DNA of 64,000 bases. Source: Bacteroidales bacterium (GTDB lineage Bacteria > Bacteroidota > Bacteroidia > Bacteroidales > Paludibacteraceae). Shown here in pieces: positions 13,289 through 15,445 of the stretch. The stretch covers positions 3,584 to 67,583 of the forward strand of contig SUXC01000014.1 in NCBI GenBank assembly GCA_015061165.1. The letters are read 5' to 3'. Positions within the stretch are counted from its first letter, which is position 1. Each line of letters begins with the position of its first letter. Below the pieces are notes generated by a model, which was given only the letters and a program-made list of their open reading frames with translations, made no database searches and had not been told where the DNA came from. Made by a program: the position numbers and the translations under genes.

Positions 13289-13381
13289 AATTAGTTGTTT
13301 TTTATGGTTAATAATTGTTTTTGCTATCGGTCGTGTATCTTACCCTTAATTCTATTCCGCCTATATACACAAAATTCCGTG

Positions 13382-13389
13382 CAAAGGTA
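13382..13389 (-). promoter_or_regulatory. -7 box TACCTTTG (TAnnTTTG) for the POT transporter
   Basis: rc of CAAAGGTA. A CAAA (-33 TTTG) lies 20 nt further upstream at 13410-13413. 94 nt to the ATG. Confidence 0.6.
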
Positions 13390-13644
13390 ATATTTTTTTT
13401 GCATATATGCAAATAAAATCGCACGGGAGCACAAAAAAAGTTTCTATTTACTGAAGAATGTGTGACACATACCGAGTTTTTTTGGCGACCATTTCGCGAC
13501 CACCATTGGACATCTATAGGACATTGGTGGGCTTTCGGTGGCACTTTTGTGCCTCGTTTCTTCGCTAACCACCCGATTACCACTAGCCACGTCATGGTTG
13601 CCGGCGAATGGCGCTATAATTTTGCTGCATATTCGCTGCACGCT

Positions 13645-13671
13645 TCGTAGTCTCATCGTAGTCTCATCGTA
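13645..13671. repeat. 2.5 x 11-mer tcgtagtctca
   Basis: Read directly in the 540-nt spacer downstream of the LHH gene. Confidence 0.8.
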
Positions 13672-13712
13672 CCCGAGAAAACCTATCAAAAACACACCTC
13701 TTGTTAATACAA

Positions 13713-13747
13713 ATGCGGAAGTGGCTGTTTTATAACCACTTCCGCAT
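13713..13747 (-). terminator. Hairpin downstream of the LHH nuclease gene
   Basis: Perfect 12-bp stem atgcggaagtgg / ccacttccgcat with an 11-nt loop. T-rich flanks on both strands. Confidence 0.55.
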
Positions 13748-13829: not shown

Positions 13830-14354
13830 CTACAATGTTGAGTAAATTTTCAACTTTTCTTCTGTAGTAAAGGCAGCAAAACGAGCTTTCCAATATGCCG
13901 ACTTTTCGTGGTCGAATTGTCCGCGGTCGATTTCCGACTCTTTGCCTACTTGGTGCAAGATTGGGTTATTACCTTCGCCCATATGTTCTGCCCAAGTAAG
14001 TTCCGCAAAAGGAGAGTCTTGCTGCTGTCCTATATGATGCAATTCATATGGATCTCCATTAGGATCGCGCGGCGGAAAGCCTTCTCCAATAAGGTCAGCA
14101 TTGTTGTACTCTGCCCAACGGTCGTAGTCTTTGAGGCGTTTTTGCGTGCTGGTTTTGAGCCAAGTATTTCTGCGAATGGAGAAATCTGCCCAATTGATAT
14201 CCGTTCGGCATAATGCCCAACGTTCTCCGATTAGGCATGCTTGTAGTTTAGCGCGCATATAAATCTCCGCTTCTTCCATAGTAGCAATGTAACGGATAAC
14301 ATCTTCAGGCCAGTTAGTTCGCTGACTAATGAGTTGTTGCTCTTGAGATGTCAT
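13830..14354 (-). CDS. Stand-alone HNH/EndoVII-fold nuclease of the LHH type
   Basis: 174 aa. The segment DPYELHHIGQQQDSPFAELTWAEHMGEGNNPILH fits the LHH toxin-nuclease signature (LHH ... H ... LH). No signal peptide and no large N-terminal delivery domain. Confidence 0.7.
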   Translation of the reverse strand: MTSQEQQLISQRTNWPEDVIRYIATMEEAEIYMRAKLQACLIGERWALCRTDINWADFSIRRNTWLKTSTQKRLKDYDRWAEYNNADLIGEGFPPRDPNGDPYELHHIGQQQDSPFAELTWAEHMGEGNNPILHQVGKESEIDRGQFDHEKSAYWKARFAAFTTEEKLKIYSTL

Positions 14355-14485
14355 TTCTCTCCTAAATTGTTAGTAGGAATATTCAAACGGCTGTTGCAGT
14401 TTGGGCATTTTGGTAGCACCTCTTTAATGAAGCCACCTACGGTAAATACATGTTTGCATCGTAAGCAACGACGAAGTTGTAGCAT
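14351..14485 (-). CDS. 44-aa zinc-ribbon peptide, translationally coupled to the LHH nuclease gene
   Basis: Hand-translated as MLQLRRCLRCKHVFTVGGFIKEVLPKCPNCNSRLNIPTNNLGEK. It has two CxxC pairs 16 residues apart. Its TGA overlaps the nuclease ATG (ATGA). It is too short for the ORF track. Confidence 0.5.
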   Translation of the reverse strand: MLQLRRCLRCKHVFTVGGFIKEVLPKCPNCNSRLNIPTNNLGEK

Positions 14486-14513
14486 AAAAGTTCGCGTTAA
14501 GAAATTAGTCTTT

Positions 14514-14618
14514 TTATTTTTTTAATAAATCACCAATAATCTTAACTGCAGTTTTTACTAAGTTAATCACATCATTACGTTCAACATCCGAAACTTTTCC
14601 ATTAGTTTTTGGTTTCAT
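14514..14618 (-). CDS. Possible 34-aa ORF
   Basis: Hand-translated as MKPKTNGKVSDVERNDVINLVKTAVKIIGDLLKK. It lies 28 nt upstream of the zinc-ribbon ORF on the same strand. The only support is position and an amphipathic-helix-like sequence. Confidence 0.25.
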   Translation of the reverse strand: MKPKTNGKVSDVERNDVINLVKTAVKIIGDLLKK

Positions 14619-14732
14619 AATTTTTTTCCTTTCTTGTCTTATTTTCCGCCTACTCTTTGTCGGATTTTCGGCACACTCCGTTGGTTAATTGTTTGAATTA
14701 TTGTTTGTTATCTTGATTTCGTATATACATAC

Positions 14733-14755
14733 AAAAAGCGTGAACTTTCGTTCGC
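14733..14755 (-). terminator. Intrinsic terminator or attenuator between the rod-like element and the small ORFs
   Basis: Minus strand: gcgaac-gaaa-gttc(a)cgc followed by TTTTT. Confidence 0.5.
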
Positions 14756-14761
14756 TTCAAT

Positions 14762-14900
14762 TTGATTGTTTGAGGTTCTGGACTACCTTAGTAATTCAAA
14801 TTTACGCACGGAAAACTCACGCTGGTAACGCGAGCGTGCATAAACCGTACTTGAATTACTAAATGGTTGTTTTGAAAGTGTCCAGTTTTCAAACAATCAA
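14762..14900 (-). ncRNA. 139-nt rod-like nested-helix element (candidate structured leader or ncRNA; could also be a DNA-level imperfect palindrome)
   Basis: Five nested helices read by eye on the minus strand: ttgattgtttga/tcaaacaatcaa (12 bp), ctggac/gtccag, acc..ttagtaattcaa/ttgaattactaaggt (15 bp with a 2-nt bulge), gtacgg/ccgtgc (one G-U, which favours the minus-strand RNA), and cacgct/agcgtg. Confidence 0.4.
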
Positions 14901-15006
14901 GTCTGGGCTTATAACGCTATATTAAATATGTCGGGCAACGGTATCGTTGCAGTTTAGTTATGAACTATGAGTGATGAATGATAAGTAATTTTAGGGAGTT
15001 AGTTAT

Positions 15007-15325
15007 TTAGTTAGTATCTTTTTGCTTAATACCTATTGCGTTGGTAAGTTCTACCCATCTGGTTGAAGACATAGTAAAAGCATTTAATCCTGCCTCTACT
15101 CTAATCCCCTCGAATTCGAGGGGGTTAAAATTAGGGTTATACAACGTCTCCATATACCCAAGAACTCAATCGTATACGATTTCTCATCCAATTTGCGACA
15201 ACACCATTAGGATCTATGGCGTTTTTCATTCTCGCAATATCCGTCATGCAGATATAATCAACGTTACCATGTTTGATAGTTTTAACGGCAACTTCTTTTA
15301 CGATAATTTCACTTTTCTTTGCCAT
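15007..15325 (-). pseudogene. KilA-N domain gene remnant (two frameshifts, C-terminally truncated)
   Basis: Three reading frames together give MAKKSEIIVKEVAVKTIKHGNVDYICMTDIARMKNAIDPNGVVANWMRNR / TIEFLGIW / ETLYNPNFNPLEFEGIRVEAGLNAFTMSSTRWVELTNAIGIKQKDTN. This resembles the N-terminal half of Bacteroidales KilA-N proteins. The usual C-terminal half is absent. Confidence 0.6.
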
Positions 15326-15351
15326 AATCCATTGTTTTCGAAAATCGGCTG

Positions 15352-15359
15352 CAAAGGTA
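15352..15359 (-). promoter_or_regulatory. -7 box TACCTTTG upstream of the KilA-N remnant / LHH locus
   Basis: rc of CAAAGGTA, 27 nt from the remnant ATG. This is the only consensus box I found upstream of the LHH genes. Confidence 0.6.
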
Positions 15360-15445
15360 GTGAAATATTTTGAATTGTGCAAATAAAAATGCCATTCCAC
15401 TTGAAAATAATATGCTCTTTTTTCGCTATTTTCTATTTGAAGTGG

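Follow-up and report, generated by a model that had tools for sequence, protein, structure and literature searches.

Known systems and the locus

LHH nucleases have been known almost entirely as the tips of exported toxins, accompanied by SUKH immunity proteins. These Tox-LHH/Imm-SUKH toxin-immunity cassettes were described by Zhang, Iyer and Aravind (2011, PMC3113570) and by Zhang et al. (2012, PMC3482391); the latter work assigns LHH nearly always to polymorphic toxins and gives N, LHH, E, H, H and W as the Tox-LHH signature residues. Here we describe an operon from a 64,000-nucleotide (nt) stretch of a gut or rumen Bacteroidales genome (contig SUXC01000014.1; the window, whose numbering is used throughout) in which such a domain is found in a free-standing protein of 174 amino acids (aa), together with a zinc-ribbon protein (ORF44), a 34-aa peptide (ORF34) and a structured leader RNA. 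The locus is a new form within an already known nuclease family rather than a system of a new kind. Our tentative reading, to which we give as a whole a little less than an even chance, is that it encodes a stand-alone Tox-LHH DNase acting as a portable effector of defence or conflict islands, in a small, horizontally mobile operon with an attenuator/DUF805b leader and with a translationally coupled zinc ribbon that is a facultative subunit and not an indispensable immunity protein.

The window protein resembles the described toxins in its LHH domain, its signature and the full module of about 160 aa, but differs from them in being free-standing, without any trafficking or secretion domain and without a SUKH or other gene downstream, and in having a zinc-ribbon micro open reading frame (ORF) ahead of it; its family is very strongly conserved, not polymorphic, and lies amid defence genes and not secretion-system genes. 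A second relevant system is Eleos, a two-gene dynamin-like defence system (LeoBC/LeoA) of unknown mechanism that was published without a nuclease (Millman et al. 2022, bioRxiv 10.1101/2022.05.11.491447). The LHH genes of relatives sit last behind LeoBC-LeoA, IetA-like or PDC-S27 genes, that is, in the effector position, whereas the window operon has no NTPase and its nuclease is matched by no PADLOC model. Type II toxin-antitoxin systems share with the window a small upstream ORF that is translationally coupled to a larger gene, whose enzyme could be lethal, and a setting that is mobile and low in GC, but the pairing of LHH is facultative (27 of 80 loci), its partner can be upstream, downstream or fused, and the partners are several unrelated zinc-ribbon families without a DNA-binding antitoxin fold. 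With respect to the DUF805b RNA (RF02914, clan CL00115), the window copy agrees with the model, being above threshold, full-length and just before a start codon, but the genes downstream are not DUF805 genes and a larger structure that is not in Rfam precedes it.

The features of the operon, all on the minus strand, are, in order:

14919..14733, minus strand: attenuator-like structured leader element, about 190 nt, not in Rfam (folding, covariation)
14681..14647, minus strand: DUF805b RNA motif (Rfam RF02914) in the 5' leader (cmscan 39.5 bits, E 1.1e-07)
14618..14514, minus strand: ORF34, Lys-rich amphipathic peptide of 34 aa, first cistron (coding status plausible, unproven)
14485..14351, minus strand: ORF44, zinc-ribbon protein of 44 aa, CxxC-x16-CxxC (sequence, TIGR02098)
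14354..13830, minus strand: LHH nuclease, 174 aa (Pfam LHH; residues ~1-83 conserved N-terminal subdomain, 84-159 LHH core)
13747..13713, minus strand: terminator-like hairpin with a 14-bp stem (terminator scan)

The TGA stop of ORF44 and the ATG of the nuclease overlap as ATGA, and 28 nt separate the end of ORF34 from ORF44. Thus, the zinc-ribbon micro-ORF with two CxxC pairs and the further ORF upstream of it, both of which had been recognised in an original prediction made from the sequence alone, are present as described. No ORF was found by scanning the 83 nt between the nuclease stop and the terminator-like hairpin, inspection by eye shows no signal peptide in the 174-aa protein and Pfam recognises no further domain in it, in agreement with the lack of secretion signal, delivery domain and downstream immunity gene that had been noticed before.

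The LHH nuclease

The 174-aa protein is matched by the Pfam LHH model (PF14411) over residues 84-159 and profile positions 1-74 of 76, with an E value of 1.2e-18 and 67.4 bits (cut-off 23.3), which confirms by a profile search the LHH-type assignment of the original prediction. All the signature residues are present (N85, L105-H106-H107, E118, H124, H134 and W155) and they are intact in 79 of 81 loci, the two remaining genes being truncated, so that the catalytic loss in relatives that would have spoken against the original prediction was not seen. A word-indexed search retrieved 341 near-full-length homologues, nearly all of 156-187 aa, and an exhaustive search found 938 relatives among 50%-identity representatives. 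In many of these 938, residues 1-160 align in one stretch to the C-terminus of longer proteins, among them a 201-aa protein with a lipoprotein signal, membrane-anchored proteins (280 and 441 aa), a 717-aa fusion with VWA and a protein that is 2139 aa long. The window nuclease begins about 12 residues ahead of this conserved module; lipoprotein signals or membrane anchors are found in longer relatives. Because the toxin module of about 160 aa recurs at the C-terminus of longer proteins, the N-terminal region of about 85 aa is not novel, contrary to what had been supposed for the first 90 or so residues.

An AlphaFold2 model built on an 82-sequence alignment (mean predicted local distance difference test score, pLDDT, 96.3; predicted TM-score 0.90) places the N-terminal region and the LHH core in one compact domain; a run with 23 close homologues (pLDDT 52) was discarded. 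Among solved structures no relative was found either by sequence or by fold, the nearest nuclease being ColE7 (E 5.8). In BFVD, one phage protein annotated as 'LHH' matches, in the LHH core only, and a tblastn search of a phage genome collection gave zero matches to the nuclease.

Comparison with relatives of about 81% protein identity gave a proportion of non-synonymous differences (pN) of 0.11-0.13 and a proportion of synonymous differences (pS) of 0.72-0.79, synonymous sites being saturated, and a ratio of non-synonymous to synonymous rates (dN/dS) of ~0.05-0.13, i.e., strong purifying selection. As pN is far below a saturated pS, the nuclease is strongly constrained and presumably an active enzyme. 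Judging from its sequence, therefore, the 174-aa protein is a bona fide Tox-LHH nuclease of the HNH/EndoVII fold, apparently active and probably directed against DNA. An antisense ORF inside the LHH gene (76-153 aa), present in many loci, was also considered as a possible immunity gene, and it was rejected because amino-acid and codon composition explains its length (121 open codons observed, 108-109 expected from synonymous-codon permutation).

The zinc-ribbon partner

The genomic neighbourhood of the nuclease was analysed in a census of 80 loci encoding LHH homologues, from Paludibacteraceae (the closest, 84% identity), Prevotella/Hoylesella, Muribaculaceae, Cryptobacteroides-like metagenome-assembled genomes (MAGs) and others; labels such as L001 and L002 designate the fetched loci, which include LHH, zinc-ribbon and hairpin loci. 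ORF44 contains two zinc knuckles (C7-x2-C10 and C27-x2-C30) whose four Cys are invariant in 8 homologues, and it is matched by the NCBIfam model TIGR02098 (MJ0042_CXXC) with 22.7 bits (cut-off 20.9), the Pfam zinc-ribbon models remaining below their cut-offs. Counting ORFs of up to 110 aa with a CxxC...CxxC pattern on the same strand and within 400 nt of LHH, a zinc ribbon was found in 27 of the 80 loci, upstream in 18, of which two are in-frame fusions, and downstream in 10 (L015 has both). This corresponds to 0.427 zinc ribbons per kb near LHH, versus 0.038 elsewhere on the same strand and 0.002 on the opposite strand, an 11-fold enrichment (binomial p 4.6e-14).

The zinc ribbons, whose sequences were read by eye, belong to at least four unrelated types and are found on either side of LHH. 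In the closest clade (L001, L002, L003 and L005) the ORF44 type immediately precedes LHH, and in several Muribaculaceae (L069, L071-73 and L076) it lies 75-95 nt upstream of LHH. Coupling through ATGA or adjacent codons was observed in the window, L002, L003, L082 and L083, and in two different MAGs (L001 and L005; 223 and 221 aa) zinc ribbon, linker and nuclease form one in-frame ORF. Because both proteins form a single polypeptide in two genomes, ORF44 probably binds the nuclease, and it may modulate it, either by restraining it until a trigger arrives or by connecting it with DNA or with a sensor. ORF44 is also under purifying selection (pN 0.33-0.38, pS 0.70-0.81), although its evolution is 3-4 times faster than that of the nuclease.

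When the zinc ribbon itself served as the query, few called homologues were retrieved. An ORF44-type zinc ribbon precedes LHH in L082, behind a radical SAM gene, and in L083 and L084, behind LeoBC-LeoA and a 32-aa peptide. The block of zinc ribbon and LHH is thus kept behind differing upstream parts, namely the DUF805b leader (window), LeoBC-LeoA (L002, L083 and L084) and radical SAM (L082). In the last of these loci (L082:214-1670), which holds the closest relative of ORF44 outside the species, the zinc ribbon and LHH are directly preceded by an ORF of 37 aa and a gene for a radical SAM/SPASM enzyme; by analogy, these two resemble a peptide-maturation pair like those of ribosomally synthesised and post-translationally modified peptides.

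The defence-gene context

SMI1/KNR4 (SUKH) genes are absent among 75 immediate neighbours of the homologues, while on plasmids of E. coli, Ruminococcus albus and Clostridium perfringens each of the related LHH genes is followed by an SMI1/KNR4 gene. The defence genes around LHH were scanned for with PADLOC (88 larger same-strand neighbours, E <= 1e-5), which gave matches to LeoBC (8), LeoA (7), IetA (4), PDC-S01 (4) and PDC-S27 (2), as well as to SspH, pVip, mad8 and WYL. By our own count, a P-loop NTPase is located directly upstream of LHH in about one sixth of the loci (e.g., L004, L022, L059, L066 and L074). Septu, composed of the PtuA ATPase and the HNH protein PtuB, is a known defence system that combines an NTPase with an HNH nuclease.

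The LHH loci linked to Eleos are L083:1-3656, L084, L002, L003, L053, L054, L059 and L063, in which the genes directly behind the LeoBC-LeoA pair are either those for a peptide of 32 aa, a zinc ribbon and LHH or those for LHH and then a zinc ribbon; the dynamin upstream of the peptide, zinc ribbon and LHH in L083 matches LeoA with an E value of 2.7e-138. This extension of Eleos by peptide, zinc ribbon and LHH is outside the published two-gene description. An IetA-like ATPase, a protein whose usual partner is a protease, is found directly upstream of LHH in L022, L058 and L075, and a PDC-S27 ATPase in L004 and L074, so that LHH has the place expected of an effector gene.

On the IncI conjugative plasmid NZ_CP035852.1 of E. 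coli (L088, 50339-54189), three genes whose starts and stops overlap encode a HerA/mad8-like ATPase of 1084 aa, an LHH nuclease of 199 aa, which shares 42% identity with residues 3-158 of the window protein, and an SMI1/KNR4 protein. The set has the appearance of a module for defence or addiction, as yet without a name, that consists of ATPase, nuclease and immunity protein.

Other neighbours are also recurrent. DUF6140 is found beside LHH in 17 loci, and further ones are DUF1232, DUF4112, short hydrophobic peptides and WYL-WCX regulators. A small protein with BNR repeats, weakly similar to Tli3, an immunity protein of type VI secretion (T6SS), adjoins LHH in 14 loci. This BNR/Asp-box protein (114-173 aa; L003, L037, L044, L051, L053, L055, L056, L058, L060, L068 and L083) is mostly just downstream of LHH, although upstream in L037 and L044, has a lipoprotein signal in some copies and none in others, and is a candidate alternative immunity protein or partner. 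One of the 75 immediate neighbours matches both the WHH nuclease and the Colicin-DNase models, so that some islands hold two HNH-fold toxin-type nucleases together; a literal search for 'WHH' did not give its locus.

The leader RNA and the 34-aa peptide

The region 14900..14619 folds with a minimum free energy of -72.3 kcal/mol (z-score -5.4 versus shuffles), and it contains a hairpin of about 140 nt (14900..14760) followed by the DUF805b motif; an upstream structured RNA, as originally proposed, therefore exists. The helices of the leader are:

14900..14889 with 14773..14762, minus strand: hairpin helix P1
14885..14880 (CUGGAC) with 14783..14778 (GUCCAG), minus strand: hairpin helix P2
14862..14851 with 14799..14788, minus strand: hairpin helix P3, carrying the apical hairpin
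14822..14808 (arm C) with 14751..14738 (segment D), minus strand: alternative C:D helix, followed by a U-run at 14737..14733

Copies of the hairpin element were collected from the window, L011:66-265 (with compensatory changes) and L093-L172. They have the invariant boxes GAAAACUGGACACUUUC and AGGUAGUCCAG, with helices P1 and P3 variable in sequence. A scan for boxes CTGGACACTTTC...GGTAGTCCAG yielded at least 120 metagenomic copies from rumen and gut, and no Rfam 15 family matched any of 20 copies scanned. Covariation over 28 copies comprises 16 compensatory pairs, 7 in P1 and 9 in P3, and 97.9% of the helix cells are paired, versus 28-41% when the partners are slid. The C:D helix, whose arm C is the 3' arm of the apical hairpin, is paired in 93.5% and has 2 compensatory pairs. 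This alternative pairing just before a U-run suggests a terminator/antiterminator layout, and the leader may therefore act by attenuation.

The DUF805b copy scores 39.5 bits (gathering score 35.6) over the full model (1-35), and 43.1 bits with our own model R1; its structure consists of a hairpin of 4 bp, the loop of which is GCCGAAAA, and of the tail AGAGUAGGC. This motif was named for its association with DUF805-domain genes, but none of the three downstream proteins has a DUF805 domain according to Pfam. Only five other loci have it upstream of LHH on the same strand, at a distance of 0.8-3.3 kb, and there it heads operons with unrelated first genes. The loci with DUF805b besides the window are L006, L009, L011, L012, L013, L096, L100, L124, L135, L140, L141, L156 and L165.

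An ORF of at least 80 aa lies downstream of the hairpin in 66 loci (on the same strand in 57 of them, most starting 46-160 nt after it), and these genes are very diverse, many of them beginning with signal-peptide-like sequences. DUF805b follows within about 100 nt in 8 of 80 hairpin copies, so that in some operons the two together make up a composite leader, and LHH is present in only 1 of the 80 hairpin loci. Since DUF805b and the hairpin precede unrelated genes, the leader is a generic regulatory element that is not dedicated to LHH. For the same reason, an LHH-specific RNA antitoxin was rejected, and with it the suggestion that the upstream RNA neutralises the nuclease. Other candidates were discarded as well: the hairpin is not a FopS/GibS small RNA (FopS RNAs are of 65-70 nt and have another architecture), KilA-N is not its conserved partner (no KilA-N in 80 hairpin loci), and it is probably not part of an integron-like or rAID-1 cassette array, as no recombinase and no further copies of the element were seen in the window and P1 and P3 covary like RNA.

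ORF34 gave zero matches in Pfam, NCBIfam, PADLOC and PHROGs, and its coding status is plausible. The best argument for it as a real first cistron is the spacing of DUF805b, since its start lies 28 nt from the motif and the first genes of L006, L009 and L011 lie about 20-25 nt from theirs (own count). Beyond the species, its counterpart is one weak positional match, the 32-aa peptide that is found at the same position before zinc ribbon and LHH in L002, L083 and L084. No site of ORF34 varies in four strains that are about 98% identical, but the whole leader is equally invariant: leader and ORF34 together (415 nt) have 0 variable sites, and the flanks 1.5-4.8%.

Genomic setting

The operon belongs to a low-GC island of about 2 kb amid housekeeping genes (GC 33-38% over 14400-15400, 45-53% in the flanks). 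Synteny within the species is constant: S26 peptidase, WbqC, aminotransferase, KilA-N, the operon and a POT transporter. The three-part arrangement that the original prediction had singled out is kept solely within the species and a few close relatives. Identical sequences have been called by gene callers elsewhere on 14 contigs for LHH, 14 for ORF44 and 48 for ORF34, and the nuclease is identical to NCBI MBE6320904.1 from a Bacteroidales MAG. The KilA-N-like gene (15007-15400, minus strand) is frameshifted into ORFs of 87 and 48 aa and is probably a pseudogene in this strain, since it is intact, with 135 aa and a weak KilA-N match, in the sister strains L091 and L092. The stem of the hairpin at 13747..13713 is kept through compensatory changes in L081, a 95%-identical relative. 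Between the terminator and the POT transporter, about 400 nt (13300-13700) are ORF-poor, contain tandem 11-mers at 13645-13666 and 13481-13502, are conserved among strains (1.5% variable sites) and are probably the promoter and 5' untranslated region of the transporter. No operon promoter was located with a sigma-70 scan, the consensus of which is uninformative for Bacteroidota.

Function of the operon

According to the reading that we tentatively prefer, a module of about 160 aa that in other bacteria is the tip of an exported toxin would be made here as a leaderless cytoplasmic protein. Its gene, often the last one behind Eleos dynamins, IetA-like AAA proteins, PDC-S27 ATPases or other GTPases and sometimes solitary, would be expressed under the control of the leader, i.e., a generic terminator/antiterminator and then DUF805b just ahead of the first start codon. 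Translational coupling would keep zinc ribbon and nuclease in a fixed proportion, and the zinc ribbon would bind the nuclease, restraining it until a trigger arrives or tethering it to DNA or to a sensor. A defence role of the operon is plausible, as the original prediction of a toxin-immunity or defence module had it, and the PADLOC neighbours agree with this part of the prediction; the obligatory pairing with an immunity protein did not hold. A more ambitious version, which we consider unlikely, is that zinc ribbon and LHH, with or without the 34-aa peptide, are an undescribed plug-in effector of Bacteroidales immunity, in which the zinc ribbon would inactivate or tether the DNase and NTPase sensors (Eleos dynamins, IetA-like proteins or PDC-S27) or a phage cue would release DNA degradation.

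Several observations weigh against the preferred reading. The nuclease is matched by no model of PHROGs, NCBIfam or PADLOC, and in PADLOC-DB 2.0 LHH, ORF44 and ORF34 are all without a match at E <= 1. The window operon contains no other defence gene either, and LeoBC/LeoA are not adjacent to it; as it has no NTPase, a sensor-effector mechanism would need partners in trans, or else the module acts alone. The co-location of LHH with defence genes may simply reflect the shared habit of mobile genes of collecting in islands. None of the 80 LHH loci shares a universal neighbour with all the others, and 53 of them have no zinc ribbon within 400 nt. Because of these 53 loci, and because some LHH genes are solitary, the zinc ribbon is not an obligatory neutraliser; its absence from homologues is an outcome that the original prediction itself had named as speaking against it. 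ORF44-type zinc ribbons are also found without LHH, behind three GTPases in L085 and solitary in L086, and the three substitutions that ORF44 shows within the species are all non-synonymous. Finally, this reading raises the question of how a cell tolerates and uses a cytoplasmic toxin-grade DNase without SUKH.

A type II-like toxin-antitoxin or abortive-infection pair, in which a labile ORF44 would inhibit the LHH DNase and the loss of ORF44 under stress or on infection would let the nuclease kill the cell, shares much of this evidence: the gene order, with a small ORF upstream that overlaps the larger toxin gene by 4 nt, is the one usually found in type II pairs, the canonical SUKH is absent, zinc ribbons are strongly enriched beside LHH, ORF44 evolves faster than the nuclease and the context is that of defence islands. 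Moreover, fused toxin-antitoxin proteins such as CapRel exist, with which the fusions of zinc ribbon and LHH are compatible. This alternative has to face, nevertheless, that two thirds of the near-identical, catalytically intact homologues lack a zinc ribbon, several loci having no same-strand neighbour at all and some of these solitary genes retaining all catalytic residues, that at least four unrelated zinc-ribbon types occur on either side of LHH, that the ORF44 type is found without LHH and that no PADLOC or toxin-antitoxin model was matched. The loci without zinc ribbon thus weaken a strict pair, and we regard it as somewhat unlikely. If the nuclease were instead an orphan polymorphic-toxin cassette kept for recombination, or a leaderless effector released through T6SS, vesicles or lysis, with immunity provided in trans or by the BNR/Tli3-like protein, it would be easy to understand that the same module is the C-terminus of lipoproteins, membrane-anchored and very large proteins, that the LHH literature deals almost entirely with polymorphic toxins (PMC3482391), that the BNR/Tli3-like protein is mostly just downstream of LHH in its 14 loci, and that Bacteroidales hold orphan immunity gene arrays (rAID-1; bioRxiv 10.1101/471110). 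In hundreds of sequence clusters, however, the stand-alone form has a start codon of its own and keeps a conserved length; the gene also has a leader and a terminator of its own, and its very strong purifying selection is unlike polymorphic-toxin diversification; no full-length toxin, secretion-system or SUKH gene was recognised beside LHH in the loci read or among the annotated neighbours, and the window has no downstream gene of any kind, which leaves this explanation distinctly improbable.

The three ORFs could also be mere passengers, unrelated neighbours in a variable island where the nuclease alone serves, e.g., in DNA scavenging or repair. The neighbourhoods are indeed highly mosaic and without a universal partner, and small zinc-ribbon genes are also found at other places of the islands (453 kb contain 17 of them on the same strand) and without LHH. 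Against this stand the 11-fold local enrichment of zinc ribbons, the recurrent coupling in five loci (window, L002, L003, L082 and L083), the in-frame fusions and the presence of the ORF44 type beside LHH in both Paludibacteraceae and Muribaculaceae, which are clades distant from each other, and we consider it very improbable. As to the co-occurrence of the micro-ORFs and the RNA, which the original prediction had proposed to examine, it holds in part for the zinc ribbon (27 of 80 loci, with enrichment and fusions), and not for the RNA, which is rarely found with LHH, or for ORF34, which has a single weak counterpart outside the species.

Significance

The stand-alone LHH proteins form a large, strongly conserved family, leaderless and cytoplasmic, that lives without SUKH in defence islands of gut and rumen Bacteroidales. 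The leader hairpin is a widespread, strongly covarying RNA outside Rfam that may serve accessory genes of Bacteroidales generally as an attenuator. If the zinc ribbon or the NTPases control the nuclease, a nuclease effector would be added to Eleos-like systems, together with a new kind of small-protein regulator; and if zinc ribbon and LHH were a plug-in module, they would provide Eleos with a killing arm in this order of bacteria and would represent a new class of zinc-ribbon nuclease regulators replacing SUKH.

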